Part shown: positions 9,116 to 59,677 of the stretch, piece by piece | How positions within the stretch are numbered: the first letter of the stretch is position 1 | How the letters are laid out: each line of letters starts with the position of its first letter | Assembly: GCA_013214025.1 (NCBI GenBank) | Contig: JABSRN010000006.1 | Coordinates: 96,715 to 160,714 of the forward strand | Source of the DNA: Polyangiaceae bacterium | GTDB lineage: Bacteria; Myxococcota_A; Polyangia; Polyangiales; Polyangiaceae | Reading direction: 5' to 3' | DNA: 64,000 nt | Program-made: the position numbers and the translations under genes | Notes under the pieces: generated by a model | Told to the model about the DNA's origin: nothing | What the model saw: the letters and a program-made list of their open reading frames with translations, nothing else | Database searches by the model: none

Positions 9116-9994
9116 CTACTCGGCGCCCTGGCGGCGACGTCCCCAGGCTGCAAAGGCGCCGGCGAGCATTAGGAAGCCCGCCGCCCCGGTTCCCGTGGAG
9201 GCCGCAGCCGGCTGACCGAGTTGGCACGAGGCAGACGCTTCGGCTTCGCCTTCGGCTTCACACACTCCGTCGGCACAACCAGCACTACCGCTCGCAGTAG
9301 CGCTGGTATCTACCGCGGCAGCCAAGATGGCTCCGAGGGCCGTAACGCAACTCTCTGCGTTCCCGCCATGATCAACGTATTCGCCATCGCAAAAGAGTGC
9401 GCCCTCGGGGGTAGAACAGCTCCCCGTGCACTCAAGTTCCAAGTTCGCTTCGCATTCTGCGGTGGCGGTCCCTTGGCAACTGATCTGACAGTCCAAATTC
9501 GGGCTGACCGAACAGGAACCTTCACAGGAGGCAGCACAATTCCCGGAACACTCCACCGGCGCGCCATCGCAACTGGCCGAGCAATGACCGGAGCAACTGG
9601 CCTTGCAAGAGGTCTTGCACTCGCTCTTGTTGTCGTGGGACTCACACTCCGCCTCACAATTGGTGTCGCAGGTTCCCTCACAGTCAGCGCTACAGCTAAA
9701 GTCGGGGTTCGCGCCACACTCAGCTTCGCAACTGGCTTCGCAACTGCCTGAGCAATCTACCGAAGGCAGCTCGGTGCATTCAGTAGCGCAATGATCGACG
9801 TTAACTTGAGCAGTACAAGCGGCCTGAAACGACACCGCAGAACATTGCACTTCGCAACCGCCCGATATCTCGGTTTTGCATTCGGCAGACGCCTCCACGT
9901 CGATATCGCCGCAATCGGCTACTGAGGCGGCGTTTGCGTAGCTCGCGCCGAGGAGAATGAGTGAAGCGATGGATGCGGAAAATGCTCGTTTCAT
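9116..9994 (-). CDS. Secreted Cys-ladder (C-x3-C repeat) protein with a MYXO-CTERM-like C-terminal sorting signal
   Basis: I chose the internal ATG at 9994 (MKRAFSASIASLILLGASYANA signal peptide). Blocks include CSGSCEASCEAEC, CSADCEGTCDTNCEAEC, CKTSCKASCSGHCSASC and CSGNCAASCEGSC. The C-terminus has ..SCQLG.., a hydrophobic stretch GAAGFLMLAGAFAAW, then GRRRQ. Confidence 0.7.
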   Translation of the reverse strand: MKRAFSASIASLILLGASYANAASVADCGDIDVEASAECKTEISGGCEVQCSAVSFQAACTAQVNVDHCATECTELPSVDCSGSCEASCEAECGANPDFSCSADCEGTCDTNCEAECESHDNKSECKTSCKASCSGHCSASCDGAPVECSGNCAASCEGSCSVSPNLDCQISCQGTATAECEANLELECTGSCSTPEGALFCDGEYVDHGGNAESCVTALGAILAAAVDTSATASGSAGCADGVCEAEGEAEASASCQLGQPAAASTGTGAAGFLMLAGAFAAWGRRRQGAE

Positions 9995-10213
9995 GATGTG
10001 CCTGCTGAAGTCTCGAGAGGTGGATAAGAAGGCTACCGCCGCCGATACGAGGGTGTCCAACTTCTGATACCCGGAACGACATCCAATTCTTCCCTGATGG
10101 GAAGCGAGCAGTGACCCTACTGCCGAGGCCGCGCGACCTACACCCCGGGGCACGGACGGAGAGATCCGTCCGTGGATTAGCCTAATAGAGCCAGTCCGCT
10201 GAGCCAGCGCGGG

Positions 10214-15229: not shown

Positions 15230-16254
15230 TTGATCGGACCGGATAACGACAACGACGTCGAGTCAGCGGTGAACGGCGGCGCCCAAGAGCCGTTGGTTGC
15301 CGCCGTCCTCCACCAAGTGGTGGAACTAACCCACGCGCTCGAAGACCGCCGTCTGGGCCTGCTCGCCGAGTTCCCGAAGACAGAGCTCCTAAGCGTCAAC
15401 GCGTTGATCGAACTGCTCACCGATGTCGGCGTAGAGGACAGCGACGAAGGACTCAGCGACGGTATAGTTTGGCTCGGCGAAAACCAAGCCATCGTATACG
15501 CGAACCGCACCGCCATATCTTTGCTCGGCTATCGAAACCCGGGCGAAATCGTCCAGGAATCTGCCCGCAAACTATTGGGTCCGGTACTACATCTCGACAC
15601 CAACGAACCGCAAGAGCTAACCCCTCCTCGACCGGACGGGCTGGAGTTCACTCGCGACGTCATGGTCAGCGTCGGGGACGACAGCCCCACCGCATTTGGT
15701 CATCCACGACATCACCTTACAGAAAGCTCTCGAAAAGGAGCTACAGGCGTCCCGGGATCGCGCACTCGAACTGGCGCAATCCAAGTCGGACTTTCGCGCC
15801 TACATGAGCCACGAAATCCGAACTCCCATGAATGGCGTAATCGGAATGATCGACGCATTGCTGGAGACGGAGCTCACCGAGGAACAGAAGGAGCTCACAC
15901 GCGACGGATGCGCAGCTCGCGATTATGAACGACATACTCGGCTTTTCGAAACCCGAAAGCGGGCGAGTCGTTCTCGATTGGTTGGCCTTCAACGTTCATC
16001 GGAACGGCTGAGCTGCACAGTACAGATTGCTGACAACGGTCGCGTCGCCACCGAAATATACGAAAACGATGAATACGATTTGGTTCTAATGGCTTGCCAA
16101 ATTCCGGAGCTGGAAGGATTTGACGCCACCCGAGAAATTCGCCGTTCAGCGAAAGACCGAAGGTCCCGGCCCGGGCAACTGCATCACCACGCCATTCAAG
16201 AAAGAACAGCTCCTGGCCACGTTGACTCAATGCTCCGATGCCGCTGCAGGCTGA
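15230..16254 (+). pseudogene. Relic of a PAS - HisKA - (HATPase deleted) - receiver hybrid histidine kinase
   Basis: The PAS-like N-terminus is in frame 2. HisKA ([23 protein letters not shown]) is in frame 0. The second helix ([24 protein letters not shown]) is in frame 1 and ends at TGA 16009..16011. No HATPase_c domain is present. The receiver fragment ([36 protein letters not shown]) has Asp replaced by Ala. The tail [14 protein letters not shown] is in frame 1 and ends at TGA 16252..16254. Confidence 0.8.
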
Positions 16255-16266
16255 CGCCGCTGTGGA

Positions 16267-17262
16267 CTATTGAGGCAACCAGTTTTCGTTGTCCAAGAAC
16301 GACTTTACGCGGCGCATGCCTTCGTCGAGATCCACAGTCGGTGAGTAACCTAAGACTCGTTTTGCCTTTTCCACCGAGTACGGCTCAGGACGAAGCATGA
16401 AATTCAACGTATCGGAATCTGCTTCCGAGGGCTTTCCGACCAGGCGGAAACCAATATCGAGGCACCACAGCAGCGCTCGCATGACAGGAATCGGCACTTC
16501 ACGATAGCTGCGGCCCAAACAACCGCTCAGCCGTGAAAAATAGTCTGCAAACGTTGTCTCCGCGTCGTCTGTCACATTGAAGGTTTCGCCGCCTGCGTCC
16601 TTTTCGATAGCCAACATGACAGCATCGATCAAATTGTCGATGTACACATGATTCATGATGGCGTGCGCGCCTCCCGCATTCACGAACATTCCCTTGGCCA
16701 TGAAACTCGCGGGTCGAGTGACCCAAGGTTTCGATCCTGGCCCGTACACATCGCCTGGACGAATCACGATGACATCGAAATTGCCAGGATCGTGCATAAC
16801 GCCCAGAGCGGCTTCACTCTCGATCTTGGTCTGGCAGTAGGGATTATTTTCACCACGCAAAGGACCGTCCTCGGTGACGAAACGCGGAAACTGAAATCCG
16901 TAGACCATCACGGAGGAAAGGTGAACGAAACAACTGACCCCAGCGCTTCGGGCCTGCTCCGCCATATTCTTCGCGCCGCCTACATTGATCTTGCGAAACA
17001 GACCCATGTCACCGACAGCCTCAACGATGGCGGCAGTATGGAAAACAATGTCAGCGCCCTCGCACAGTCGAGCCGCGTCCTGCTCTGACGTAATGTCTCC
17101 AACAAAACAATCTGCTCCCAAGGCTTTCACTCGCTCCAACGCTGGCTCACTGAGATCCAGCCCCTTCACGGTCATGCCCCCGGCCTTCGCCATTTCCGCC
17201 ATGCGAAATCCGATGAAACCGCCGACGCCCGTGATCGCTATCGTCTTTCCTGTTAGCTCCAT
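16267..17262 (-). CDS. NAD-dependent epimerase/dehydratase (3-beta-HSD-like extended SDR)
   Basis: It has [14 protein letters not shown] (GxxGxxG), ..VFHTAA.., ..YCQTKIESE (YxxxK). Length is 331 aa. Confidence 0.8.
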
Positions 17263-17521: not shown

Positions 17522-18150
17522 CTCAAGAGCTGGTTCAGCTCGGCCGACAAGCTTCGTTGGACGCGGCGGGTGGAGCTGCTCACGAACGCTATTGCTCCGG
17601 GACAACACGTGCTCGAGCTCGGCTGCGAATACAGGACGCTGACTGCTGCGCTTGCCGATCGGGAACCCAGTATAACCCCGGCAGATACGTCTGTCGCCTA
17701 CGTCCGTCAGGCGGCGCGGAAGGTTGAGTTTGAACACGTCAAGTTCTTGACGCTGAACCCAAGCGCGATGCCTTTCAAAACCGACAACTTTGATCTCGCC
17801 GGCGACATCTCTTTCATCTATCGCTGCCGGCCGGGTGTGCGGACACAATTGGCCCGTGCACTGCGACCCGGCGGTCGCGCGCTGTTCGCGGAGCCCAACC
17901 TGCTGAATCCACACATCGCCACCCGACAACCCACGCGACTCCGCCGAGATCACTACCAAAAGGCCTTCGGTTGGCTTTGCGCCACCACATTCTGTAGGCG
18001 GGATTCGGTAGTGTCACTATCACGCCCTTTGACTTTCTCCACCCTGGGCTGCCTCCCGAGTTCGTTGCTCTGGGGGACGATTGGGCAAGAAAACTTGAGC
18101 GGGTTCCACTGCTCCGAGAACTCCGCGGCTCGTTAATTATTGACACGCGG
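17522..18150 (+). pseudogene. Class I SAM-dependent methyltransferase, frameshifted with an in-frame TAG
   Basis: Frame 2 reads ..GQHVLELGCEYRTLTAALA (degenerate motif I) ..LRPGGRALFAEPNLLNP. The C-terminal part AGFGSVTITPFDFLHPGLPPEFVALGDDWARKLERVPLLRELRGSLIIDTR is in frame 1, directly after TAG 17995..17997. The intermediate segment RDSAEITTKR is in the third frame. Confidence 0.6.
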
Positions 18151-18200
18151 CTCAGAGCTCAGAGCTTGCCAAGCGCGCGGGACAATGACACATTTTCTTC

Positions 18201-18545
18201 ATGCTCGAACTCATCTGCAAACGGACCTGAAGCACCTGTCGCAAAGCGGTCGCTTTGCTGGAGGAAAACGCTATCGAGTATCGGTACCGCGACTACACCC
18301 AGGAGCCCCTCAGTCGGACTGAGCTCAAAAAAGTGTTTCAGCTGCTGGGAAAAAAGCCGGCCGAGCTATTGCGAAAAAACGACAAGGCCTACAAAGAATT
18401 AGGGCTCACCGGCGAAGAGTCCAATGCAAAACTGATCGCCCATATGGCGGAGCACCCCACCCTGCTCCAACGTCCCATCGGTATATTGAATGGCAAGGCA
18501 GCCGTCGGTCGGCCTGTTGAGAATTTGCTCGAACTCATCAAGTAG
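18201..18545 (+). CDS. ArsC/Spx-family (arsenate-reductase-like) redox protein with predicted selenocysteine (UxxC) at codon 10
   Basis: ATG 18201 is the first start after the upstream in-frame stop. Reading through TGA 18228..18230 gives MLELICKRT-U-STCRKAVALLEENAIEYRYRDY..LLRKNDKAYKELGL..HPTLLQRPI... The TGA aligns with the catalytic Cys of the ArsC/YffB N-terminal motif (..NCDTCRKA / ..PACGTSRN). The ORF track only reports the 3' part (18255..18545), in the same frame. Confidence 0.75.
18235..18264 (+). promoter_or_regulatory. Bacterial SECIS-like stem-loop downstream of UGA 18228
   Basis: The upper stem GCAAAGC (18241..18247) pairs perfectly with GCUUUGC (18252..18258). The apical loop is GGUC (18248..18251). 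Possible lower pairs are C18240-G18260 and U18239-G18261 (with U18259 bulged), and CCU 18235..18237 with AGG 18262..18264. The loop G-U lies about 21-22 nt from the U of UGA. Confidence 0.65.
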
Positions 18546-18624: not shown

Positions 18625-19914
18625 ATGTCGATGAGGGCCATAACTACTCAGACGCTTGGGAACGATCGCGAGCCCAATCAACCAACGCCCAATCAGCCAA
18701 CACTTGCGTCGGCCTACCAACGCGTGCGCGCCGGAACCGAACACCTCAGCGCCCCGCTGAGTGCCGAGGATCAGACGGCCCAGAGCATGCAGGACGCCAG
18801 CCCCACCAAGTGGCACCGGGCACACACCACGTGGTTCTTCGAACAATTTGTCCTGGCGGTTCACGACCCCAGTTATGTACCGGACGCGCAGTCGTCGAAG
18901 CTGTTCAACAGCTACTACAATAGCGTCGGCACGCCCTTCCCGCGACACCAACGCGGGCTGTTGACGCGACCCAGTAGCGCTGAAGTCACGACGTACCGCC
19001 AGCGAGTGGACCGCGCGATGGTCTCGCTCCTGCGGGGAGACATCTCAACGTCGTTGGCTAGCATCGTTGTCTTAGGCTTCCACCACGAACAACAACACCA
19101 AGAGTTGTTGTTGACCGACGTCAAACACCTGTTGTCGCACCACCCAGATCAGCCAGCCTACATGAAGGTTGCAGCGCCTCCCGACGCCGACGAACGACCG
19201 CTCACCTACGCCCGCATACCCGGCGCCTGCTATCGGCTGGGCCATGCGGGCAAGGGCTTCGCCTTCGACAACGAAGGACCGCTTCACGACCGACTGATTG
19301 ACGAATTCGACATTGCTAGCCGACTGGTTTCCGAAGCGGAATACCAAGACTTTATCGATGACGGAGGCTACAGCCGACCCGAACTCTGGCTGAGCGCCGG
19401 TTGGGACGCCGTCCGGAAGCATGATTGGACAGCGCCTCTGTACTGGACGGCAAGCCGTGAGCAGTATCTATACACCATGAACGGTGCTCGGCCACTAGGC
19501 CGCCGCAGCCCCGTGACGCACGTCAGTTACTACGAGGCCGACGCCTATGCGCGTTGGTCGGATGCACGGCTGAGCACCGAATTTGAATGGGAGGTAGCAT
19601 GCCGCCACTTGAAGGAAACGCCTCCAATTGGGGGGGGGCCAGCGCTGCACCCGGAGACTCAGCAGACCGGAGCTGACTTTTTCGGCAGCTGTTGGCAATG
19701 GACTCAGTCCGACTACGCGCCCTACCCTCGCTTCCGCGCGTCGCCGGATGCCGTCGGCGAATACAACGGCAAATTCATGAGCGGGCAGTACGTATTACGC
19801 GGAAGCAGTGCGCTCACTCCGGACGGCCATGCCCGCCCGACCTACCGCAATTTTTTCCCGCCCACGGCACGCTGGCAATTTAGCGGCATTCGCCTAGCTA
19901 GAGACGTGCCTTGA
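18625..19914 (+). CDS. egtB: Ergothioneine biosynthesis sulfoxide synthase EgtB (DinB_2 + FGE-sulfatase domains)
   Basis: It has ..DASPTKWHRAHTTWFFEQFVL.., HHEQQHQELLLTDVKHLL, and a C-terminal FGE-like domain (..YYEADAYARW.., ..YVLRGSSALT..). I placed the start at ATG 18625. Confidence 0.85.
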   Translation: MSMRAITTQTLGNDREPNQPTPNQPTLASAYQRVRAGTEHLSAPLSAEDQTAQSMQDASPTKWHRAHTTWFFEQFVLAVHDPSYVPDAQSSKLFNSYYNSVGTPFPRHQRGLLTRPSSAEVTTYRQRVDRAMVSLLRGDISTSLASIVVLGFHHEQQHQELLLTDVKHLLSHHPDQPAYMKVAAPPDADERPLTYARIPGACYRLGHAGKGFAFDNEGPLHDRLIDEFDIASRLVSEAEYQDFIDDGGYSRPELWLSAGWDAVRKHDWTAPLYWTASREQYLYTMNGARPLGRRSPVTHVSYYEADAYARWSDARLSTEFEWEVACRHLKETPPIGGGPALHPETQQTGADFFGSCWQWTQSDYAPYPRFRASPDAVGEYNGKFMSGQYVLRGSSALTPDGHARPTYRNFFPPTARWQFSGIRLARDVP

Positions 19915-20903
19915 GCCTCAAATTTACGCCAACCGCTCCTTCCCAACTGAGCCCATCCGGCATTCTCGATCTGAGTCCCGAGGCGGGTGACTTGATCGCC
20001 GACGGCCTGGCGGGTCTGCAGCGATCGACCAAGACGCTCCCCAGCAAATACTTTTACGACAAGCGCGGGAGCGAGCTCTTCGAAACGATCACCACGCTGC
20101 CCGAATATTACGTCACTCGTACCGAACTCGACATCATGGCGGAGAGTGCGTCGGAGATGGGCGCACTGCTTGGCGAACACGGGCTGCTAATCGAGTTTGG
20201 TTCAGGATCCGGACAAAAGACACGTGAGCTACTCAGCGCCCTGCCAGAACCTGCCGGATGCATCCTGATCGACATCAGCAAGAGCGCATTGAGCGGCAGT
20301 ATCGAAAAACTCGAAGAAGCGTTTCCGTCGCTGCCCATCTTCGGTGTCTGCGCCGACTACACCCGTTCGCTCCAATTGCCAGAGGTCGGTACTAACGCGA
20401 AACGGCGCATCGCCTACTTCCCGGGCAGCACCCTAGGTAACTTCTCGAACCATGAGGCCCGAGTCTTTCTGCAGCGCACCGCAGCGCTCCTGGGGCCGGG
20501 CGGAGCACTACTGTTGGGTGTGGACCGGGTCAAAGCAGTAGGCCTCTTGGAAAGGGCCTACGACGACGCACGGGGGGTCACCGCAGCCTTCAATTTCAAC
20601 TTGCTGACTCAACTCAACGCCAACGGCGCCAACTTCGTTCTCGATCGCTTTCGGCATTCCGCGGTGTTCAACGCCGCTGAGTCGCGCGTCGAAATGCACT
20701 TGGTGAGTCAGGTCGAGCAGACGGTGGAACTGGGTAGCGCCACCATCCGATTCGACGCGGGCGAGTCGATCCGAACAGAGATGTCCCACAAGTACACACT
20801 AGAGGCTATCCGTGAACTCGCCGGCTCAGCGGACATGACCCTCGAACACCACTGGTCCGACAAGCAAGATTGGTTCTCCGTGTGTTATCTGAGTTGCCGC
20901 TGA
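19911..20903 (+). CDS. egtD: L-histidine N-alpha-methyltransferase EgtD
   Basis: It has ..LPSKYFYDKRGSELFETITTLPEYYVTRTELDIM.., IEFGSGSGQKT. The TTG start overlaps the egtB TGA (TTGA, 19911..19914). Confidence 0.85.
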   Translation: MSLKFTPTAPSQLSPSGILDLSPEAGDLIADGLAGLQRSTKTLPSKYFYDKRGSELFETITTLPEYYVTRTELDIMAESASEMGALLGEHGLLIEFGSGSGQKTRELLSALPEPAGCILIDISKSALSGSIEKLEEAFPSLPIFGVCADYTRSLQLPEVGTNAKRRIAYFPGSTLGNFSNHEARVFLQRTAALLGPGGALLLGVDRVKAVGLLERAYDDARGVTAAFNFNLLTQLNANGANFVLDRFRHSAVFNAAESRVEMHLVSQVEQTVELGSATIRFDAGESIRTEMSHKYTLEAIRELAGSADMTLEHHWSDKQDWFSVCYLSCR

Positions 20904-30473: not shown

Positions 30474-30814
30474 CCGAAGCACTCGAAATTCTCGCGGGAG
30501 CGCTGGTGCTGCTAGGCACTTTTTTTTGCTTCACCGGTGGCATCGGCGTGCTTCGCTTCCCCGACTTTTATACGCGCCTGCATGCCGCCGGGATGACGGA
30601 CTCGATGGGGGCAGCTCTGATACTGGCTGGATTGGCCGTGCATCAGTGGACCGATTATGGCGCGGGCCTCAACCTGGGCCGCCTGGCTATCATTTGGTTC
30701 TTCCTGAACATTACCAGCGCTGCCTCGACCCACGCATTGGTGAAAGCAGCGTACGCAGGCGGCGTCCGGGTGAATGGGCCGACGGAGGATCGACGCAGTG
30801 TCGTTCCCAATTGA
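30470..30814 (+). CDS. mrpG: Cation/proton antiporter subunit G (MrpG/MnhG)
   Basis: It has ..GTFFCFTGGIGVLRFPDFYTRLHAAGMTDSMG.. The start overlaps mrpF as ATGA. Confidence 0.8.
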   Translation: MTEALEILAGALVLLGTFFCFTGGIGVLRFPDFYTRLHAAGMTDSMGAALILAGLAVHQWTDYGAGLNLGRLAIIWFFLNITSAASTHALVKAAYAGGVRVNGPTEDRRSVVPN

Positions 30815-31631
30815 AATCATCCTGTTCGGGTTCTTACTGGTGATCACCGTCACCATCATCCGGCTGCGGTCCTTATTCGCCGCCGGCATGATGACAGGCG
30901 CCTTCAGCCTATTGTCCGCTGGACTATTTACACTCATGGATGCCGTCGACGTCGCCTTCACCGAGGCAGCGGTCGGTGCAGGCGTTTCGACTATCCTCTT
31001 CTTGTCAACGCTGTCGATTACGAAGAAGCAAGAACGCAAGAGCCCCAACTTGCACTGGCCGGCCCTGGCGGTGTGCCTTGTGACCGGAGCGGTCTTGGTT
31101 TACGGAACACTGGATATGCCGGCCTACGGCGATCCTAACGCGCCCATCCACGCACACGTCGCCCCCCGTTATATCAATGAGTCTCCGAAAGAGATCGGAC
31201 TGCCCAACTTTGTGACGTCTGTGCTTGCGAGCTATCGGGGCTACGACACCTTTGGCGAACTCGGCGTCATTTTCACAGCTGGGGTCAGCGTCATGTTGCT
31301 ACTCGGCGGTGCGCCCGCCGGAGTCGCCGGAGCGACCCGCCGCGAGGAACCCAGCTTCGACGACGAAGAGCGCCCGGACTTCGACGACGAAGAGTGGGAC
31401 GGCTCCGAGTCAACCCCCGGCGATGAATCCGCGATCGCCCAAGGCTATTCCGCGACCGACAATGGCGAACGCGCCAGCGAATTCCCCGCCGAAAATGACA
31501 ACGCCGAGAGCCAACCCAGCTCGGCGCCGAGTATGTCAGATGAGCCTCCCCCACCGAATACTGGTGAAGCTCAATCCAATCCAATAGGGTTTAGGACAGG
31601 GGCCGAACCCACGGGCGGAGAACGATCATGA
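30798..31631 (+). CDS. MrpA C-terminal-like / DUF4040 (MbhD/E-like) subunit with a long acidic low-complexity tail
   Basis: GTG 30798 is preceded by GGAGGA; ATG 30774 is an alternative start. The TM core has ..DAVDVAFTEAAVGAGVSTILF.. and ..VTSVLASYRGYDTFGE.. The last ~100 aa are rich in D/E/S/P. Confidence 0.65.
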   Translation: MSFPIEIILFGFLLVITVTIIRLRSLFAAGMMTGAFSLLSAGLFTLMDAVDVAFTEAAVGAGVSTILFLSTLSITKKQERKSPNLHWPALAVCLVTGAVLVYGTLDMPAYGDPNAPIHAHVAPRYINESPKEIGLPNFVTSVLASYRGYDTFGELGVIFTAGVSVMLLLGGAPAGVAGATRREEPSFDDEERPDFDDEEWDGSESTPGDESAIAQGYSATDNGERASEFPAENDNAESQPSSAPSMSDEPPPPNTGEAQSNPIGFRTGAEPTGGERS

Positions 31632-32149
31632 GTGCCCCCCGTAAACAACAGGTCCATGAGCTGCTCGTCCTCCGGGCTACCGCGAAACTCCTGATCCCGT
31701 TCATTTTACTCTTTGCTCTGTACGTACAGTTCCACGGCGACTTCGGTCCGGGAGGCGGCTTCCAGGCCGGCGTGATCTTCGCCGCCGGCCTGATCTTGTA
31801 CGGTCTGGTTTGGGGACCCGAAGCTCTCAAGCGTGTGGTTCCACCGCGGGTAGTGGAAGCGTTGGTCGCGTCTGGTCTGCTCCTCTATGGCGGCGTCGGA
31901 ATTTTTTCGCTCGGAAGGAGAAAAAACTTTCTCGACTACGCCGCTCTCGATCCACAGCATCCTCAACACGGTCAACACCTCGGCATCTTGCTCGTGGAAC
32001 TCGGCGTCGGCGTGACCGTCTGCTGCGTTATGCTCGCCATCTACTTCGCCTTTGCAGATCGCGCTCTCTACCACGCGGCGTATCACCCCACAGCCAGTGC
32101 CGTGCCGGCTCAGAGCCCCTTCGACCAGCCCCGGGAGTCGAAACGATGA
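31628..32149 (+). CDS. mrpB: Cation/proton antiporter subunit B (MrpB/MnhB)
   Basis: It has ..LIPFILLFALYVQFHGDFGPGGGFQAGVI.. The start overlaps the previous gene as ATGA. Confidence 0.8.
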   Translation: MSAPRKQQVHELLVLRATAKLLIPFILLFALYVQFHGDFGPGGGFQAGVIFAAGLILYGLVWGPEALKRVVPPRVVEALVASGLLLYGGVGIFSLGRRKNFLDYAALDPQHPQHGQHLGILLVELGVGVTVCCVMLAIYFAFADRALYHAAYHPTASAVPAQSPFDQPRESKR

Positions 32150-32511
32150 GCGGCTACTTAGGACTCTGGCACTACTGGGCGACCATCGCCTTGTCCATGC
32201 TCGGGCTCTACACGCTCATTGCGAAGAACAACTTGGTCAAAAAGATGATGGGCCTGAGCATATTCCAGGTCTCCGTCATCATGCTGTACGTATCGATGGC
32301 CAAGGTCACAGGCGGCACCGCGCCGATCCTGCGAACCGACATTGAAAACCCCGTTTATTCCAATCCGCTCCCGCACGTATTGATGCTCACGGCGATCGTC
32401 GTCGGGGTGGCCACCACCGCCGTCGGCCTCTCGTTGATAGTGCGCATCCGAGAAGAATACGGCACCAGCGAGGATGACGAGATTCGTGCCATTGACCGGG
32501 AGGCGATGTGA
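32146..32511 (+). CDS. mrpC: Cation/proton antiporter subunit C (MrpC/MnhC, NuoK-like)
   Basis: It has ..LIAKNNLVKKMMGLSIFQVSVIMLY.., ..PLPHVLMLTAIVVGVA.. The start overlaps mrpB as ATGA. Confidence 0.8.
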   Translation: MSGYLGLWHYWATIALSMLGLYTLIAKNNLVKKMMGLSIFQVSVIMLYVSMAKVTGGTAPILRTDIENPVYSNPLPHVLMLTAIVVGVATTAVGLSLIVRIREEYGTSEDDEIRAIDREAM

Positions 32512-34073
32512 ATCACCTCCCAGTACTCCAGGTCATAGTTCCCCTACTGGCTGCTCCGATATGCCTGTTACTTCGCCATGGCGGACTCGCGAGGGTTCTC
32601 GCTACCTGCGTCGCTTGGAGCAGCTTTGCGATGGCTCTCATCTCCCTGGACCAGGTCGCCCAGCTCGGCACGCTGACTTACTACCTAGGCGGCTGGGAGC
32701 CCCCTTGGGGCATTGAGTACCGAATCGATCGCACCAGCGCACTGGTACTGGTTGTAGTGACAGGCATAGCTTCCGCGGTGATTCCCATTGGCCCGGGAGA
32801 AAAGAGCTATCAGATCCCCGGGCACCGCCACGCCATGTACTACGCGGCGTTTCTCCTGTGTCTGTGCGGCTTGCTCGGTATGACCGTGACGGCCGACGCC
32901 TTCAACGTGTTCGTGTTTCTCGAAATTTCGTCGTTGTCGACCTACACACTGATCGGCCTCGGCTCCAACCGACGAGCACTGACTGCCGCCTTCAACTATC
33001 TCATCATGGGAACGGTCGGCGGCACGTTTTACTTGATCGGCGTGGGCTTACTCTACCAAATGACCGGCAGCCTCAACATGGCCGACATCGCCACTCGGTT
33101 GAGCGAAATGCAGAGCACCCGGACCGTCGTGGTGGCCTTTGCGTTCGTCACTATGGGGCTGGCGGTAAAACTGGCCGTGTTCCCCGTCCACCAATGGCTG
33201 CCCAACGCCTACGCCTACTCTCCCAGCGCCGTATCGGCATTCCTCGCGGGTACGGGCACCAAGGTCGTCTACTACCTGCTCGCTAGGATTTTGATGACCG
33301 TGTTCGGCGCCGCTTTCGTGTTCGACATCCTGGGTTTCGACCGCCTGTTGATGCCCATATCGTTGGTCGCCATGTTCGCGGGGAGCGTGGCCGCGATCTA
33401 CCAAACCGATCTCAAACGGTTGCTCGCCTATTCCTCCATCGCGCAAGTCGGATACCTAACCTTGGCGCTGAGCCTCGGGACCACGGAGGGCATCGCGGCT
33501 GGGCTACTACATATGTTCAACCACGCTCTCATGAAGGGTGGTTTGTTCCTTGTGGTGGCGTGCATCGTTTGTCGCACAGGCTCTTCGCAGATCTCTGAGC
33601 TCGGCGGGCTCGCCCGTCGCATGCCCATGACTTTTGCCGCCCTGATTGTCGGCGGCTTTGGGTTGATCGGTGTGCCCAGTACCGTTGGCTTCATCAGCAA
33701 GTGGTACCTAGTTAGTGCCGCACTCGGTTCCGGCTCTTACGTAGTCGCCGCGCTGATTCTAGCCAGCTCCCTGCTCGCGGTGGTCTACGTCTGGAAAATT
33801 GTGGAGGCCTGCGTTTTCGGAAAAGCACCGGAAGGCGCACCGCAGGAGGAGGCCCCCCTGGGTATGCTAATTCCCACTTGGGCCCTGCTAGGCGCCACAT
33901 TGGTGTTCGGCTTATCCGCCGACTTTACCACCCATGCAGCGACCAGCGCCGCAGAGCAGCTGTCAAACGGCGTCAAGACCGCCAAGCTCATCTCCCGTGA
34001 ACGGCGACAACTACACGCTCACACCCTGGCAGAACCGAATGCTGTCACCCCAGCCCAAGAGAGCGGGCAATGA
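32508..34073 (+). CDS. mrpD: Antiporter-like subunit D1 (MrpD / NuoM-N family)
   Basis: This 521-aa polytopic protein has ..FPVHQWLPNAYAYSPSAVSAFL.., ..KRLLAYSSIAQVGY.., ..HALMKGGLFL.. Confidence 0.8.
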   Translation: MNHLPVLQVIVPLLAAPICLLLRHGGLARVLATCVAWSSFAMALISLDQVAQLGTLTYYLGGWEPPWGIEYRIDRTSALVLVVVTGIASAVIPIGPGEKSYQIPGHRHAMYYAAFLLCLCGLLGMTVTADAFNVFVFLEISSLSTYTLIGLGSNRRALTAAFNYLIMGTVGGTFYLIGVGLLYQMTGSLNMADIATRLSEMQSTRTVVVAFAFVTMGLAVKLAVFPVHQWLPNAYAYSPSAVSAFLAGTGTKVVYYLLARILMTVFGAAFVFDILGFDRLLMPISLVAMFAGSVAAIYQTDLKRLLAYSSIAQVGYLTLALSLGTTEGIAAGLLHMFNHALMKGGLFLVVACIVCRTGSSQISELGGLARRMPMTFAALIVGGFGLIGVPSTVGFISKWYLVSAALGSGSYVVAALILASSLLAVVYVWKIVEACVFGKAPEGAPQEEAPLGMLIPTWALLGATLVFGLSADFTTHAATSAAEQLSNGVKTAKLISRERRQLHAHTLAEPNAVTPAQESGQ

Positions 34074-35614
34074 ATCCCCAACTACTCATCGCCTTGGCCC
34101 TGCTCACGCCCACCGCGGGCGCTGGACTGGTCGCGCTCACCGGTCGCTCCCCCAATCGACGCGATAGCATGACGATCCTGGCGACAATCTTGACGGCATT
34201 CTTCGTCTGGAATCTGGCGCCCATCGTCGCCGACGGCGGCCGTCCCGAACTCGTCTTGTTCGAGATCGTGCCCGGGCTGGAAATCGCCTTTGGCCTCGAG
34301 CCCCTGGGCATGCTGTTCAGCCTAGTCGCGGCGAGCCTCTGGGGGCTGACGAGCGTCTACGCGATTGGATATATGCGTGGGCACAATGAGGAGAACCAAA
34401 CCAGGTTCTTCGTGTGTTTCGCGTTGGCAATATCAGCGGCTCTCGGAATCGCCTTCGCCCGGAACCTGATCACGCTGTTTCTCTTCTACGAGCTACTGAC
34501 GTTCTCCACCTACCCCCTGGTAACCCATCACGGCACCGCCCAGGCCAAAAGAGCTGGCCGGATTTATCTAGGCATTCTGGTCTCCACTTCGGTGGCGTTC
34601 CTACTCTTTGCCATCCTCTGGACCTACCACCTGACCGGCACCACCGAGTTCCGACCGGGAGGGATCTTGGCGGGCAAGGCCGACAACATGACCGTCGGCA
34701 TCCTACTGGCCCTCTTCGCCTTCGGCACCGGGAAGGCCGCGTTGATGCCCTTTCACCGGTGGCTACCCAACGCCATGGTGGCGCCGACGCCGGTGAGCGC
34801 GCTTCTACACGCGGTAGCAGTAGTCAAAGCCGGTGTGTTCACCGTGCTAAAAATCGTGACCTATATCTTCGGCATCGATCTTTTGGCGGACACGGGCATG
34901 TCTGTGTGGCTCATGTATGTCGCTGCCACCACCATCGTGTTCTCCTCAATCGTCGCTATCACGCTCGATAATTTGAAGGCGCGACTCGCCTATTCCACCA
35001 TCAGCCAACTCGCATACATCGTGCTGGGCGCGGCGCTCGCCACCAAGTCGGGCATCTTGGGGAGCGGCATGCACATCGCCATGCACGCCGTCGGAAAAAT
35101 CACGCTGTTTTTCTGCGCCGGTGCCATTTACGTCGGCGCCCACAAGACCCTCGTCAGCGAGCTCGACGGCTTGGGCCGCAAGATGCCATTCACCTTTGGA
35201 GCATTTTTCATCGGCTCCCTTTCGATCATCGGCTTGCCGCCCTTCGGCGGGGCCTGGAGCAAGTGGTTCCTGGCCCTCGGCGCCGCCGACGGTCACCAAT
35301 ACGTGTTCACCGCAGTATTCATGCTCAGCAGCATCCTCTCCATCGCCTACCTCATGCCGGTGGTCGGGCGCGCGTTTTTTCTTAGCCCCGAGCTGGAGGC
35401 GCCCGACGACCAATTAGCGGCGGCGCACGCAGCCGACGAACCCGGAGACTCAAGCAGCGACGGAGACTCAAGCAGCGACGGCATCTTCGCCAACCTGCAC
35501 GAGGCTCCGCTCTTGTGCGTGCTACCGCTGTGTTGCACGGCCGCTGGTTGCCTCGCCCTCTTCTTTCTGGCAGAGCGAATCCACTCCCTACTGACTCCGA
35601 TTGTGGGGGGCTGA
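34070..35614 (+). CDS. Antiporter-like subunit D2 (MrpD / NuoM-N family)
   Basis: It has ..MPFHRWLPNAMVAPTPVSALLHAVAVVKAG.., ..ARLAYSTISQLAY.. The C-terminal tail has an 18-bp tandem duplication (DSSSDG x2, 35444..35479). Confidence 0.8.
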   Translation: MNPQLLIALALLTPTAGAGLVALTGRSPNRRDSMTILATILTAFFVWNLAPIVADGGRPELVLFEIVPGLEIAFGLEPLGMLFSLVAASLWGLTSVYAIGYMRGHNEENQTRFFVCFALAISAALGIAFARNLITLFLFYELLTFSTYPLVTHHGTAQAKRAGRIYLGILVSTSVAFLLFAILWTYHLTGTTEFRPGGILAGKADNMTVGILLALFAFGTGKAALMPFHRWLPNAMVAPTPVSALLHAVAVVKAGVFTVLKIVTYIFGIDLLADTGMSVWLMYVAATTIVFSSIVAITLDNLKARLAYSTISQLAYIVLGAALATKSGILGSGMHIAMHAVGKITLFFCAGAIYVGAHKTLVSELDGLGRKMPFTFGAFFIGSLSIIGLPPFGGAWSKWFLALGAADGHQYVFTAVFMLSSILSIAYLMPVVGRAFFLSPELEAPDDQLAAAHAADEPGDSSSDGDSSSDGIFANLHEAPLLCVLPLCCTAAGCLALFFLAERIHSLLTPIVGG

Positions 35615-35925
35615 TGGCAACTTCCGACTCCCCCAACGAGCCGCCCCGGTCGGACAGTGAGGGTCCAAGCACCGAGGCAGAATCCTCCTCTCAGCCCTTT
35701 CTCGATAGAACATCGACCCACAACGCCATCTTCTACATTCTGGCCGGTCTGTGTGTTGGGCTATTCGCCGGCGATGCCCTTTACCACAAGCACACTCACT
35801 TCGAATTCGAGGGTTGGTTTGGGTACTACGCCTTCTTCGGATTCTTCGCCTACATGGGCATTGTTTTCATTGCCAAGGCATTGCGCACCGTTCTGAAACG
35901 CGAGGAGGACTACTACGGTGAATAG
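35614..35925 (+). CDS. Small membrane protein embedded in the mrp-like cluster
   Basis: This 103-aa protein has an acidic/Ser-rich N-terminus followed by two hydrophobic helices (IFYILAGLCVGLFAG, YYAFFGFFAYMGIVFIA). Its start overlaps the stop of D2 and its stop overlaps the start of D3. Confidence 0.55.
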   Translation: MATSDSPNEPPRSDSEGPSTEAESSSQPFLDRTSTHNAIFYILAGLCVGLFAGDALYHKHTHFEFEGWFGYYAFFGFFAYMGIVFIAKALRTVLKREEDYYGE

Positions 35926-37606
35926 TCTGCCTCCCGGATTCATTCTAATCCTCGGCGCCTTCCTGATCCCGTTCTTGAAGGGACGGGCTCGACAAGCGCT
36001 CATTCTGGCATTGCCCTGCTTGAGCCTCGGGCACCTGCTCAGTCTGCCCAGCGATCACATCGTGACCGCGCAGATGTTCGACTATCAGCTGGCTCCGATA
36101 CGCGTCGACAAGCTCTCCCTAGTCTGGGGTTATGTCTTCCACATCGCCGCTGGACTGACCGCGCTCTATTCGGTCCATGAAAAGAACAGCCTCGGTCATG
36201 TCGCCGGTCTGTCCTATGCCGGCAGCGCGATCGCGGCAGCCTTCGCCGCGGACTGGATTACGCTGTTTGTTTTTTGGGAACTCACCGCCATCACCAGCGT
36301 CTTCCTGATCTGGGCACGTCGCACCAAACGCGCGTACACCGTCGGACTCCGTTACCTGCTCATTCAGGTCGGCTCCGGTGTCATTCTACTGGCCGGGGTG
36401 CTGATCCATGTAAGCCAAGGTGGCTCCCTGTTGATTCATCGCATGGGGGTGGACAGTCTCGGCGGCAAACTCATCTTTCTCGCATTCGGTATCAAGTGCG
36501 CCTTCCCCCTGCTGCACAACTGGCTGCAAGACGCCTACCCAGAAGCCACCGTCAGTGGTGCCGTCTTTTTGTCTGCGTTCACCACCAAGCTGGCAATCTA
36601 CGCGCTCGCCCGCGTCTTTCCAGGTACAGAAATCCTGATCCCCATCGGTATCACGATGACGCTGTTCCCTATCCTTTTCGCAGTGATCGAGAACGATCTA
36701 AGACGAGTATTGGCCTACAGCCTCAACAATCAGTTGGGATACATGGTCGTCGGCGTTGGCATCGGCACCGAACTCTCCCTCAACGGCACGGCCGCGCACG
36801 CCTTCGCGCACATTCTCTACAAGGGCCTCCTGTTCATGGCCATGGGAGCGGTGCTGTTTCGAGTCGGGACCGTCAAGGCCAACAAGCTCGGCGGGCTGTA
36901 CAAGTCCATGCCTTGGACGACGGTGTTTTGCATCATCGGTTCCTTGTCGATTTCCGGCTTCCCGCTGTTTAGTGGATTTGTCACCAAGTCGATGACCCTC
37001 ACCGCCGTCAGCGAAGCCCACCTGGCAATTTACGCCGTGCTGTTACTCATCGCCTCCGCTGGCGTGGTCGATCACTCCGGCATCAAGATCCCCTTCTTCG
37101 CGTTCTTCGCCCACGACAACGGACACAGAGTCAAAGAGGCCCCGCTCAACATGCTGCTGGCCATGGGCGGGGCTGCCGCTCTCTGCATTGGTCTCGGGCT
37201 CTACCCAGCTCCGCTTTACAAGATCCTGCCCTACCCGGTTGACTACGCTCCCTACACAGTTTCCCACGTCGTAAATAGTCTTCAGCTTTTGTTGTTCGCG
37301 GCGTTGGCCTTCGGCATTCTGTGGCGGACGCGAATTTATCCCCCTGAGATCGACGCGATCAACCTCGACACCGATTGGATTTACCGTAAAGCAGCGCCAC
37401 CAGTGGTCGTCGCCATCGGGCGCGTTTGCGCCGCGATCCACAAGGCTGTCGTCGGGACCGGTGCGCAGCTCGGCAAGGCCGTGCTTGGCGGCCTCGAGAA
37501 AACCCACGCCCCCCCCGGGGTCATGGGCGAACCCTGGGGAACCGGCGCCACGTCCCTCTGGGCAGCAGCGCTGCTCGGCTTCTGTCTGATGATCTACTAC
37601 TTATAG
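35918..37606 (+). CDS. Antiporter-like subunit D3 (MrpD/MrpA/NuoL family)
   Basis: This 562-aa polytopic protein has ..FPLLHNWLQDAYPEATVSGAVFLSAFTTK.., ..RVLAYSLNNQLGYM.., ..HILYKGLLFM.. Confidence 0.8.
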   Translation: MNSLPPGFILILGAFLIPFLKGRARQALILALPCLSLGHLLSLPSDHIVTAQMFDYQLAPIRVDKLSLVWGYVFHIAAGLTALYSVHEKNSLGHVAGLSYAGSAIAAAFAADWITLFVFWELTAITSVFLIWARRTKRAYTVGLRYLLIQVGSGVILLAGVLIHVSQGGSLLIHRMGVDSLGGKLIFLAFGIKCAFPLLHNWLQDAYPEATVSGAVFLSAFTTKLAIYALARVFPGTEILIPIGITMTLFPILFAVIENDLRRVLAYSLNNQLGYMVVGVGIGTELSLNGTAAHAFAHILYKGLLFMAMGAVLFRVGTVKANKLGGLYKSMPWTTVFCIIGSLSISGFPLFSGFVTKSMTLTAVSEAHLAIYAVLLLIASAGVVDHSGIKIPFFAFFAHDNGHRVKEAPLNMLLAMGGAAALCIGLGLYPAPLYKILPYPVDYAPYTVSHVVNSLQLLLFAALAFGILWRTRIYPPEIDAINLDTDWIYRKAAPPVVVAIGRVCAAIHKAVVGTGAQLGKAVLGGLEKTHAPPGVMGEPWGTGATSLWAAALLGFCLMIYYL

Positions 37607-45723: not shown

Positions 45724-46602
45724 CTAGGACGGCGCCATCTGCAGCTGACGCTTACCCAGCTCGCCGAGCCGCATGTGCATACGGTGGTCGATCCCTACCA
45801 CCTCGCCCTCGGCCAACTTGAACCACACATTCTCACCGGACAACTCTTCGCTAGATACCAGCAGGTGATTCACAAATCCAGTCGCGCTAGGCGCCTCACA
45901 TTCCGGAGACAGGCTCGGGCACACATCGCGGTCCGGGCAGCGGTGCTTGTGACTGGACCACAGGAGCTCTTTACCGCCATGGACCGCAGCCATCAATTGG
46001 CCGTCGGTGATCATCATGGTTAGCAGCGAGCGTTCCTTGTCGCCCAAAGTCTGCCCCTCTGGGCAGGGTGGGTCACAGACACGACGCACAATCTGTGCGG
46101 TGGCGTCGATGGCGGCGAACACGTCCGCCAGCTCATGAGGCCGACCGAGCGGGCCAAAACGTTCCAACTGAGTCAACAGAAGATAGAAAATGCACTCGCT
46201 ATCGGTGTCCCCCAAGATGTATCGGCGCAACCGAGGAGCCAGCTCCGCCAACAACAATTCACGCTTCTTGGCGAAACCAGGGATGTCGCCGTTGTGCGCG
46301 AACACCCAGCGGCCGTATTGAAACGGGTGACAGTTGAGCACCGAATTGGTTCCCTGGGTGGCCTTGCGGACATGGGCTACAACGGTTTCGCTAGCCACCA
46401 CCCCGCTCAACCGATGAAACAGCTGATCTCCGAGCGCCGTGGCCGGGCTGCGGGTTAAGTGAGGCGCGCCATCCACGTAGTACGCAACGCCCCAACCGTC
46501 CGGGTGGTCATTGCTCTGGGTCCCCAGCGCATTGTCCGCTGCTAACAGCGAACGGTGCACTTGACTCTGAATGACGCTACGAAAACCAAATAATCGACAC
46601 AT
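45724..46602 (-). CDS. Class II (Ntn) glutamine amidotransferase, YafJ-like
   Basis: It has the N-terminal MCRLFGF nucleophile Cys, plus ..HPDGWGVAYY.., ..HVRKAT.., ..NCHPF.. Confidence 0.75.
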   Translation of the reverse strand: MCRLFGFRSVIQSQVHRSLLAADNALGTQSNDHPDGWGVAYYVDGAPHLTRSPATALGDQLFHRLSGVVASETVVAHVRKATQGTNSVLNCHPFQYGRWVFAHNGDIPGFAKKRELLLAELAPRLRRYILGDTDSECIFYLLLTQLERFGPLGRPHELADVFAAIDATAQIVRRVCDPPCPEGQTLGDKERSLLTMMITDGQLMAAVHGGKELLWSSHKHRCPDRDVCPSLSPECEAPSATGFVNHLLVSSEELSGENVWFKLAEGEVVGIDHRMHMRLGELGKRQLQMAPS

Positions 46603-57847: not shown

Positions 57848-59677
57848 CTAGCCCCCGTCCACTGGTCCAGAATATGCGAAGCAACGAAACCCAAGGAGTT
57901 CTCCGCGTTTCTGACGCGCCAGCGCGCCCCGCTTGGCAATTCGCACTTCGTTCCGCTCTGTCGCCGCCCAGCTCCCGCCCCGATATACGCGAGCACCGCT
58001 ACCGGCCCCGTAGTCGCTGGATGTCCATTCCGCGACCCCGCCGGACATATCTTGCACTCGCTCCGCGGTATCCCCCGTGGGAAAACTCCCGACGGGGCAG
58101 CTGCCCTCCCGAGTGCGTCCACCAGACCAACAGAGTTGCGTGCCAGGTTCCTGATTCCCCCAGGGAAAGCCAAATGCTCGAACGCCTCCGCGGCCCACCC
58201 ACTCCCATTCCGCCTCCGTAGGCAAGCGGCGCCCGTAAAACTCGCAGTAGCTCGCTGCCTCATCATTGGAGACGCAATTCATCGGGTGACGCAGCCGGTC
58301 GACATGACCGTAGGTAGCCGCCTGATCGCAGGCCACATCGAGTCGACCTCGATGTCCACCCGATGTGCCAAGAGCGCAACCCTGGCTTTCCACGCAATCA
58401 GCGAAATCCCCAGCCGTCACCTCGGTAAACTCCACGCATAGAGCGCTCACTGCCGCACTATTCTTGCTCACACGGAGTGTGAACTGTCCGCCCGCCACAT
58501 AGGCCATATCCCGAGGGCAGATCCCAGGCTGCGCCGCCACCGGAGGCTTCATTCCAGAACTCTGCCCCCGTTGGTGAACGGGCCCCGAGAAAATGGAGAT
58601 GGCAGCCAGAGCGACGGCCAGAACGACAACACCCCCTGCGATCCAAGTACCGCTCGCACCTCGCAGAGAGAGCGCCGGGTTGACCATCTCCGAATCAGAA
58701 AGAGTTTCCTCCAGCGGAGCGTCGGGGGCTTCGGACTGACCCGAGTCAAGAACACCCGCATCTGACGTCCGTACGGAATCTTCCCCGATTCCCAACGCCG
58801 GACCGAGCCCCGCCAGGGCCAGCGATGCGTCCGTGAACCGGCTACCGAGGTCCCGTGACAAACATCGGCGAAACCAAGAGTCGAACCCCCCAGAGAGGGC
58901 CGAACTCCCCCACTCCCGAGCGCGCGAAGAAGCCGGGGGAAGATCATCCAGGACCACCTCACGCAGAATGCCCACAGCCGTGCCACCAGGGTCGTTTCCC
59001 GCCCTCCAATACGATCGCCCTGTAAGCAACCTGAAGGCCAGCAGACCCAAGGCCCAGACATCGGTTCCTGGAAGGATTCGCGAACCGGCGACGGTCTGTT
59101 CCGGAGCCATATATAGCGGAGTCCCGACAGCCGCGGTGTTCGAGAGTCGCGCCTGCGCCAGCACCTTCGCGATGCCAAAGTCCAACAACTTGACTGTGTA
59201 GGGAACGTCAGCACGCAGGGACTTCGCAAGGAACACATTCTCCGGCTTCAAGTCACGGTGCACGATCCCAGCCCGGTGCGCGGCACCCAAGGCGTGGCAA
59301 ATTTGAACAAAAATCCGGTACACTTCCCTCGGCGGAATGTCGCCCCGCTGCCGAACAAACTCGGAGAGGGTCTCGCCCTCCAGAAGCTCCATAACCAGCC
59401 AGGGAATGCCTGAGAATTCATCCACCCCCGCCGCCAACACATGCACAACGTGGTCACTCTGAATCAACGCCCCGACACGGGCCTCCTGAATGAAACGCCG
59501 GCGTTGTTCCGCGTCCTCAACCAACGCCGGATGCATGACCTTCAAAGCCCGCTCGCGCCCCGTACTCAACTGCTCGACGACGTAGACAGCGCCCATGCCG
59601 CCTTCGCTGAGAGGGCGAATGACGCGGTAATCGCCGGCGAACGGCGTGCCTGGTGTGAGAGTGAACGGTACCGGCAT
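57848..59677 (-). CDS. Ser/Thr protein kinase fused through a TM segment to an FGE-sulfatase (SUMF1-like) domain
   Basis: The kinase motifs are GGMGAVYV, ALKVM, HRDLKPENVFL, DFGIAK and APE. The TM segment is IAGGVVVLAVALAAISIF. The FGE-like motifs are RLPTEAEWEW and YRGGSW. Confidence 0.85.
   Translation of the reverse strand: MPVPFTLTPGTPFAGDYRVIRPLSEGGMGAVYVVEQLSTGRERALKVMHPALVEDAEQRRRFIQEARVGALIQSDHVVHVLAAGVDEFSGIPWLVMELLEGETLSEFVRQRGDIPPREVYRIFVQICHALGAAHRAGIVHRDLKPENVFLAKSLRADVPYTVKLLDFGIAKVLAQARLSNTAAVGTPLYMAPEQTVAGSRILPGTDVWALGLLAFRLLTGRSYWRAGNDPGGTAVGILREVVLDDLPPASSRAREWGSSALSGGFDSWFRRCLSRDLGSRFTDASLALAGLGPALGIGEDSVRTSDAGVLDSGQSEAPDAPLEETLSDSEMVNPALSLRGASGTWIAGGVVVLAVALAAISIFSGPVHQRGQSSGMKPPVAAQPGICPRDMAYVAGGQFTLRVSKNSAAVSALCVEFTEVTAGDFADCVESQGCALGTSGGHRGRLDVACDQAATYGHVDRLRHPMNCVSNDEAASYCEFYGRRLPTEAEWEWVGRGGVRAFGFPWGNQEPGTQLCWSGGRTREGSCPVGSFPTGDTAERVQDMSGGVAEWTSSDYGAGSGARVYRGGSWAATERNEVRIAKRGALARQKRGELLGFRCFAYSGPVDGG

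Follow-up and report, generated by a model that had tools for sequence, protein, structure and literature searches.

Selenoproteins of the ArsC superfamily are known from computational surveys. Table 1 of the selenoproteome from Global Ocean Sampling (GOS) lists 'Arsenate reductase 2' (cd03032, UxxC, with U for selenocysteine, Sec) with 42 Sec sequences and 238 Cys homologues (Zhang & Gladyshev 2008, PMC2398784). A 2022 review lists 'Arsenate reductase-like protein, COG1393, UxxC' and cites the GOS paper for it (PMC9312934). Supplement file 3 of the GOS paper has a heading '#Arsenate reductase 2 UxxC' that includes JCVI_READ_1093018614276 (MLTLICKRTUTTCRKAVALLNEKSIPHTYREYTQEPLS...) and JCVI_READ_2161197 (MQLICTKTUSACRKAVALLDERG...); the heading is heterogeneous and also holds a second, clearly different subfamily (MVKKVDWYYMRGGUTTCTKASKF...) (PMC2398784). 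'Arsenate reductase (ArsC) 1, UxxS' selenoproteins come from the Sargasso Sea and GOS, and 'ArsC-like' selenoproteins were described in Desulfotalea psychrophila and Desulfuromonas acetoxidans (PMC1794560). Here a 64-kb window of a Polyangiaceae bacterium (JABSRN010000006.1) was analysed; the window is the whole stretch of DNA under study, and all coordinates are positions in it. The gene at 18201-18545 on the forward strand is very probably a genuine Sec-encoding gene that carries a selenocysteine insertion sequence (SECIS) within its open reading frame (ORF), and we put the probability of this reading at roughly 0.9. Judged by its sequence, it is a member of the already published, computationally predicted UxxC family.

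The window protein and JCVI_READ_1093018614276 are 62% identical over 113 residues without a gap, and both have U at residue 10. The gapless full-length identity and the shared U10 therefore place the window gene in the same orthologous group as the GOS 'Arsenate reductase 2 (UxxC)'. With the same Sec column, UxxC motif and length, it is another genome's copy of that gene. The initial annotation had remarked that ArsC-like selenoproteins appear in computational surveys, and the exact group is found in the GOS supplement. Like the window protein, the UxxS selenoproteins belong to the ArsC superfamily, have Sec in the column of the catalytic Cys and carry a SECIS within the ORF. However, they form another subfamily (e.g. 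HNPRUVTSRKA), and a resolving Cys is present only in the window protein. An analysis of SECIS covariation and synonymous sites, as given below, was not found when the main text and supplement of the GOS paper were searched (PMC2398784).

The gene and its elements are arranged as follows.

18201..18545, forward strand: coding sequence of the putative Sec-containing ArsC-family protein, 114 codons plus TAG with Sec at codon 10 (translation, PF03960, Glutaredoxin N-terminal match, collinear full-length orthologues)
18186..18188, forward strand: nearest upstream in-frame stop codon, TGA (sequence and translation)
18201..18203, forward strand: start codon ATG, nine codons 5' of Sec (ATG in 68 of 87 Sec-form sequences, GTG or TTG in some others)
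18228..18230, forward strand: TGA codon of the predicted selenocysteine U10, which takes the nucleophile place in U-S-T-C (TGA in 97 of 103 instances, TGC in 6 of 103; Cys in full-length homologues)
18237..18239, forward strand: Cys13 (TGT), likely the resolving residue of UxxC (invariant in alignments A1 and A3; aligned with Spx Cys13)
18241..18258, forward strand: SECIS hairpin within the coding sequence (7-base-pair stem 18241-18247/18252-18258, loop GGUC 18248-18251)
18372..18374, forward strand: codon of Arg58, the first arginine of the invariant triad (no variation in A1 and A3; Arg in 3f0i)
18471..18473, forward strand: codon of Arg91, the second arginine of the triad, part of LLQRPI (no variation in A1 and A3; Arg in 3f0i)
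18510..18512, forward strand: codon of Arg104, the third arginine of the triad, part of GRP (no variation in A1 and A3; Arg in 3f0i, Tyr in Spx 3gfk)
18255..18545, forward strand: 96-residue ORF from TTG, an N-terminally truncated artefact of the same gene (ORF list; the same truncation in database homologues)

Read-through translation from ATG 18201 gives MLELICKRT, the TGA codon, then STCRKAVALLEENAIEYRYRDY...LLELIK and the stop codon TAG at 18543-18545. Only CAC ATT TTC TTC separates the upstream TGA from the ATG, and ATG 18201 is therefore the first available start. Translation thus confirmed what the initial annotation had proposed, namely an ATG that is the first start after an in-frame stop, a TGA in frame at 18228-18230 and a product of 114 residues. 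It was also right that the mechanical ORF list has a sole entry for the gene, the 96-residue ORF from TTG 18255. The promoter and terminator scan of the forward strand upstream of the gene returned nothing useful.

A protein search with the gene product gave 547 homologues, whose lengths are distributed bimodally. Of the best 120, to which the length and N-terminus figures refer, 33 are full length (111-121 residues) and 87 have 94-100 residues. The short ones cover 82-84% of the query, and all begin at the equivalent of Leu19/Leu20. It could be argued from this that the real product is the 96-residue protein from TTG 18255 and that the 54 nucleotides upstream, including the TGA, are an untranslated leader. 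Four GenBank and two JGI/IMG entries (94-98 residues) and those 87 homologues are annotated in this way, the ORF is the only one in the mechanical scan, and even alone it scores above the PF03960 cut-off. However, at the protein level codons 1-9 and 11-18 are conserved in spite of variation at their synonymous sites, and their residues match the N-terminus of the Cys-containing homologues one for one. The 96-residue product would be without strand β1 and the first part of helix 1, where the whole redox motif lies. Its 'start' is an ATG, a TTG or another Leu codon depending on the orthologue, and is merely Leu19 or Leu20 of the full protein. An untranslated leader is thus extremely unlikely.

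The profile searches gave the same picture of the N-terminus. The 114-residue product, scored with Cys written at the TGA, reached 60.6 bits against PF03960 (ArsC; cut-off 24 bits) versus 49 bits for the 96-residue ORF, whose match spans only profile positions 10-78. The full-length product gains a Glutaredoxin N-terminal match and the β1-α1 region, both absent from the short ORF. The proposal that the truncated ORF misses the catalytic N-terminus agrees with this, since its profile match starts at position 10, and the assignment to the ArsC/Spx family is justified by a score well over the cut-off. The best structure matches by sequence were Vibrio cholerae ArsC 3f0i (8e-17), followed by Yersinia pestis 3rdw; weaker matches were Spx 1z3e/3gfk (about 8e-11) and R773 ArsC 1i9d (1.9e-10). 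In the sequence alignment, the U10 column coincides with the catalytic Cys of 3f0i (KCSKSR) and with Cys10 of Spx, which is the correspondence that the initial annotation had asked to be checked. Cys13 pairs with Spx Cys13, so that U10-S-T-C13 lies over C10-T-S-C13 of Spx. Together U10, R58, R91 and R104 align with the catalytic Cys and the arginines of 3f0i, and these arginines are invariant in the family. We take R58 to correspond to R60 of R773 ArsC, the arginine triad presumably being R60, R94 and R107 in R773 numbering.

A structure model was made for P0004, a Cys orthologue that is 72% identical to the window protein. The AlphaFold model has a predicted local distance difference test (pLDDT) value of 94.7. 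Its template modelling (TM) scores were 0.90-0.91 over the full length against ArsC structures, with 0.91 for 3rdw, 3f0i and 1jzw, and 0.69-0.81 on 102-104 aligned columns against Spx. Both the profile score and the fold place the protein in PF03960 and the thioredoxin-fold ArsC/Spx/YffB superfamily. None of the NCBIfam models matched by the window protein is specific to a UxxC ArsC-like selenoprotein.

The TGA column was compared in proteins and in DNA. In the 33 full-length homologues it is occupied by Cys in 32, which read ICKKTCSTCRKA (M-I-E-L-I-C-K-K-T-C-S-T-C-R-K-A), and this is the Sec/Cys pairing expected of a bacterial selenoprotein gene. The one exception is P0023, with W. In genome and metagenome DNA, the motif LICxxT[C/*]xxC has TGA in 97 of 103 instances and TGC in the other six. 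Counted in the 97 are the window itself and six contigs from the same strain; after de-duplication and exclusion of these, 84 distinct Sec-form sequences remain. Their metagenome-assembled genomes are labelled Myxococcales, Polyangiaceae, 'Deltaproteobacteria', Acidobacteriota, Gemmatimonadota, Calditrichota and 'Rickettsiales'. The Acidobacteriota forms include two Candidatus Multivoradales assemblies of about 5 Mb, and the cultured Enhygromyxa salina SWB007 carries a TGA-form orthologue, located between 184560 and 204898 of contig NZ_PVNL01000135.1. The nine codons 5' of the TGA, M[LI]ELICK[RK]T, are conserved as protein while synonymous sites vary, and the Sec-form gene outside the TGA is under purifying selection. 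The UGA is thus kept in orthologues with the protein conserved on both sides of it. As for Cys or Sec in orthologues, which was to be looked for according to the initial annotation, TGA is present in the 84 distinct sequences and Cys in a minority.

Two further observations were made on individual homologues. In L002, a 5.2-Mb Candidatus Multivoradales assembly, there are two copies of the Sec gene, at 9891-10190 and 16479-16778, 6588 nucleotides apart; the two 300-nucleotide repeats are 98% identical, with the TGA and the hairpin in each. P0023, from a 953-bp contig of a Logan assembly, is a full-length homologue with Trp at the Sec column (MIEIICRKTWNTCRKA). This Trp is probably a TGA translated by a gene caller that used another genetic code table.

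Since TGC Cys-type homologues occur (6 of 103 instances) and a single substitution turns TGC into TGA, the TGA might have arisen by nonsense mutation of a Cys-type ArsC-like gene, or be a mistake of sequencing or assembly, and the gene would then be a pseudogene or an artefact. The strain of the window, however, is present in six independent metagenome assemblies of the European Nucleotide Archive, all with the same TGA and hairpin. It occurs in the BOEU19-1 / SAMN0976570x and SAMN0971060x metagenomes. Five of the six are identical across the 135 nucleotides compared, and in the sixth (L027) the only differences, one base and a stretch of N, lie 5' of the start codon. The TGC, TGT or frameshift at 18228..18230 that would have spoken for an error was accordingly not seen. 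Furthermore, the TGA column is shared by the 84 distinct sequences from several labelled phyla in a gene under purifying selection, and the covarying hairpin described below is confined to the TGA forms, apart from two Cys forms that seem to be recent converts. A mutation or an error is effectively refuted.

The hairpin, GCAAAGC-GGUC-GCUUUGC, starts 10 nucleotides 3' of the UGA, and its loop lies 17 nucleotides after the UGA. Bacterial SECIS elements have 16-37 nucleotides from the UGA to the apical loop (PMC10778597) and conserved guanosines in the loop (PMC2398784). The downstream stem-loop, the spacing of 17 nucleotides and the GGUC loop conform to this description. Comparative helix analysis was performed on the alignment of the 84 distinct Sec-form sequences, with 500 shuffles and sliding partners as controls. 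Of the cells of the 7-base-pair helix, 99.8% are paired. Both sides changed in a compensatory way in three of the seven stem pairs, and a fourth pair varies only from G-C to G-U. In the window, and likewise in L010 from Calditrichota, the synonymous changes AAG>AAA and GCC>GCT turned a G-C pair into A-U; a C-G pair became U-A in L067, and an A-U pair became G-C in L109. None of the 500 shuffles attained the observed helix values, and sliding the 3' partners cut the pairing to 28-57%. RNAalifold independently gave the identical helix and nothing else, with no conserved lower stem.

Synonymous change is suppressed over the same region. At codons 14-19 (R-K-A-V-A-L) the synonymous-codon entropy amounts to 0-0.25 bit, compared with 1.2-1.8 bits where Leu, Thr, Arg or Pro is invariant elsewhere. 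The Leu19 codon is TTG in 84 of the 87 Sec-form sequences, while Leu elsewhere is mostly CTG or CTC. In the Cys-form genes, the helix is lost in four of six (L048, L075, L076 and L090) and the same codons vary synonymously. The other two (L065:1138 and L099:317) still have an intact hairpin and apparently fit recent Sec-to-Cys conversions. The initial annotation had noticed a SECIS-like hairpin at a canonical distance, and the spacing, the covariation and the suppressed synonymous change all speak in its favour. It resembles the minimal upper stem-loop of the E. coli fdhF SECIS: both are short hairpins at a fixed short distance from the UGA, and in both the apical loop opens with G residues. 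In fdhF, too, the loop reads GGUC, and the spacing is about 11 nucleotides. In contrast to fdhF, the window has a perfect stem of 7 base pairs that lacks a bulged U, and a conserved lower stem was not found. In columns 13-32 of alignment A2 (84 loci), the 18-nucleotide hairpin GCAAGGCGGTCGCCTTGC is identical in nearly all Sec forms from several labelled phyla. This near-invariance may reflect a joint RNA and protein constraint, horizontal spread, or both.

A UGA followed by a hairpin might also be read through as Trp, Cys or Gly, by near-cognate suppression or reassignment, with the hairpin merely stimulating read-through. No Sec machinery was seen in the 64-kb window, and P0023 has W at the column, which would suit such an explanation. 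On the other hand, the stop codons of the 28 Pfam-supported genes of the window are TGA in 16, TAG in 8 and TAA in 4; TGA is therefore not a reassigned codon here. The column is that of the redox nucleophile and is Cys in homologues, a classic Sec/Cys pair, and Trp or Gly there would kill the motif. The position of the hairpin and its G-starting loop fit the bacterial SECIS, and the W in P0023 is most simply the product of the caller's other translation table. We consider non-Sec read-through very unlikely.

Several results weigh against the preferred reading of the gene and its product. None of selA, selB, selC and selD was found in the 64-kb window. ARAGORN found no tRNA gene at all in it, and Pfam and NCBIfam sweeps of about 45 window ORFs gave no SelA, SelB or SelD. 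Exact-protein searches with LigA and YgiQ, meant to reach the rest of the genome, matched nothing, and the 96-residue ORF was met on contigs of at most 3.8 kb. No tRNA-Sec was present in the flanks of 39 related loci, which was expected and is uninformative. A literature search found no experimental selenium incorporation for this family, and another on Sec in Enhygromyxa found nothing. There is no Shine-Dalgarno motif 5' of ATG 18201, though nearly all window genes are without one. As a single sequence, the 63 nucleotides 3' of the UGA fold with z = -1.35, which is not significant alone. The stem is strongly conserved and the compensatory changes are therefore few (4 of 588 cells), and relatedness or horizontal transfer could have inflated the apparent helix support. 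The Rfam scan of the window gave no family at threshold, though it is uninformative for a bacterial SECIS within an ORF. At the level of the protein, the arsC equivalog TIGR00014 scored 90.6 bits (cut-off 106.05) and the Spx/MgsR model TIGR01617 scored 60 bits (cut-off 75.05), both below threshold. When neighbouring ORFs up to about 5 kb away were clustered for 96 loci, of which 41 exceed 6 kb, the only recurrent neighbour families were antisense shadows of the gene itself, and no ars genes were found near it in these loci, so that the ars association expected of an arsenate reductase was not seen.

As a separate observation on the window, a recognisable Shine-Dalgarno sequence is almost never present in the 20 nucleotides upstream of the 28 Pfam-supported genes. 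A second selenoprotein gene was also sought in the window through an in-frame TGA with high GC content at third codon positions on both sides and a G-loop hairpin. All of the 11 candidates resembled off-frame noise and were rejected.

From the comparative signature we infer that Sec is inserted at the UGA and that the insertion would depend on SelB. In the proposed mechanism, the mRNA would form the 7-base-pair hairpin with the GGUC loop 10 nucleotides 3' of the UGA, acting as a bacterial SECIS. This would bring SelB·GTP·Sec-tRNA(Sec) to a ribosome that has paused at the UGA, and at codon 10 Sec would be inserted and termination avoided. The protein would be a 114-residue thioredoxin-fold member of the ArsC/Spx/YffB superfamily, with the putative redox centre U10-S-T-C13 at the N-terminus of helix 1. 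Beside this centre, R58, R91 and R104 would match the oxyanion-binding arginines of glutaredoxin-coupled ArsC. In the most likely chemistry, the U10 selenolate would attack an oxidised or oxyanion substrate, and Cys13 would resolve the intermediate to give a selenenylsulfide. The latter may then be re-reduced by cellular thiols, through glutaredoxin/glutathione or thioredoxin.

The function has to be judged between the two described relatives. With the glutaredoxin-coupled ArsC proteins (R773 1i9d/1jzw, 3f0i, 3rdw) the window protein shares PF03960, the nucleophile position and the three arginines, and the model of its Cys orthologue has a TM score of 0.90-0.91 against them. U10, R58, R91 and R104 thus supply the nucleophile and three arginines of an ArsC. 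In contrast to these enzymes, it has a predicted Sec for the catalytic Cys and UxxC rather than CxxS, stays under the TIGR00014 cut-off and is without ars operon neighbours; compared with R773 ArsC, it is also about 25 residues shorter. Because the score is below the equivalog cut-off, the protein was not filed as a bona fide arsenate reductase. With Spx/MgsR (B. subtilis Spx, 1z3e/3gfk) it shares the superfamily and the CxxC-R-K-A at the N-terminus of helix 1, and the N-terminal CxxC redox switch of Spx is present in the form U10-S-T-C13. However, it is under the TIGR01617 cut-off, its structure is predicted to be less similar, it has the ArsC-type GRP arginine in place of the Spx tyrosine, and it is without the C-terminal region of Spx.

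A Sec-containing redox-sensing regulator of the Spx/MgsR type, which would bind RNA polymerase and not act as an enzyme, must be weighed on these grounds. The UxxC followed by RKA is of the Spx-type CxxC (CTSCRKA), unlike the CxxS of R773-type ArsC, the GOS authors placed the family in cd03032 (ArsC_Spx), and the ars operon context is absent. On the other side, TIGR00014 (90.6 bits) outscores TIGR01617 (60 bits, under its cut-off of 75), and the model of the Cys orthologue fits ArsC over the full length with TM 0.91, compared with 0.69-0.81 on 102-104 columns for Spx. The third arginine (GRP) is as in ArsC and is Tyr in Spx, and the protein has 114 residues, without the C-terminal extension of the Spx chains of 131-132 residues. 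A regulator of this kind is therefore unlikely. Instead, since the equivalog cut-offs were not reached and no conserved neighbourhood was seen, the protein is best described as a putative selenol/thiol oxidoreductase on a Grx-type ArsC scaffold, with the ArsC arginine triad and an Spx-like two-residue redox motif. Arsenate is a possible substrate.

In the window, the neighbours of the Sec gene are a methyltransferase, egtB and egtD. The egtB gene (18625-19914, forward strand) scored 513 bits with TIGR03440, above the cut-off (SenA, 331 versus 420), and egtD (19911-20903, forward strand) scored 374 bits with TIGR03438. The gap from the end of the Sec gene to egtB is 79 nucleotides on the same strand, and the gene may therefore be co-transcribed with the ergothioneine pathway. 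This pair is the only non-routine feature of the locus. It raises the idea that the protein is no arsenate reductase but a selenol reductase recruited to ergothioneine chemistry, or a Sec-dependent reductase of low-molecular-weight thiols. If so, its role could be, for example, to re-reduce oxidised ergothioneine or a sulfoxide or sulfenic intermediate, and the near-invariant 18-nucleotide SECIS across labelled phyla would mark a horizontally mobile redox module. However, linkage to egtB and egtD was found only in the contigs of the own strain (L024-L029); none of the other loci that were fetched has it, some 40 of them being longer than 6 kb. An ergothioneine link as a property of the family was rejected on this basis, and a recruitment of this kind is quite unlikely. 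The identification of a GATase_4 gene (class-II glutamine amidotransferase, 45724-46602, reverse strand) as EgtC was likewise rejected, at 82 bits versus a cut-off of 218.65.

Some other genes of the window were also noted. Just 5' of the Sec gene, the S-adenosylmethionine-dependent methyltransferase (17570-18136, forward strand) has very weak matches of about 20 bits to NF047649 and NF041537, NCBIfam 'exception' models for methyltransferase selenoproteins. These look like generic methyltransferase-domain similarity; the ORF ends with TAA, and no in-frame TGA extension of it was seen. The overlapping ORFs 15230-15928 and 15696-16400 (forward strand) hold a partial HisKA domain (2-40 of 66) and a partial receiver (15-68 of 111) and no HATPase, and 15230-16400 looks like a frameshifted or degraded hybrid histidine kinase. 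At 57848-59677 (reverse strand), a Ser/Thr protein kinase domain is joined to a C-terminal FGE-sulfatase (formylglycine-generating-enzyme-like) domain. At 30774-37606 (forward strand) there is an Mrp/Mbh-type antiporter or complex-I-like cluster with MbhD, Oxidored_q2 and three Proton_antipo_M genes.

In 2008 a UxxC ArsC-like protein with Sec and a SECIS within the ORF was published as a computational prediction, and the window gene will therefore be no surprise to a selenoprotein specialist. Public annotation, on the other hand, appears to truncate the whole orthologous group. Truncated entries of 94-98 residues are found in GenBank (MCA9619628.1, HHH28070.1, MEQ9496631.1 and MGD2115103.1) and in JGI/IMG (P0122 and P0128), under names such as 'arsenate reductase (glutaredoxin)' or 'ArsC/Spx/MgsR family protein', just as the initial annotation had expected of standard gene callers. 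The short database proteins P0032, P0068, P0092 and P0087 (the last via cluster member P0121) presumably derive from the loci L001, L032, L002 and L003, and all four loci carry the TGA. The value of the finding is practical, as it concerns annotation and a clean comparative characterisation of the SECIS. The correct call for the window gene is 18201-18545 with a transl_except for Sec at codon 10. For the rest of the family, the calls could be fixed with a compact signature, the 18-nucleotide hairpin GCAAGGCGGUCGCCUUGC located 10 nucleotides 3' of the UGA, for which compensatory variants are documented.

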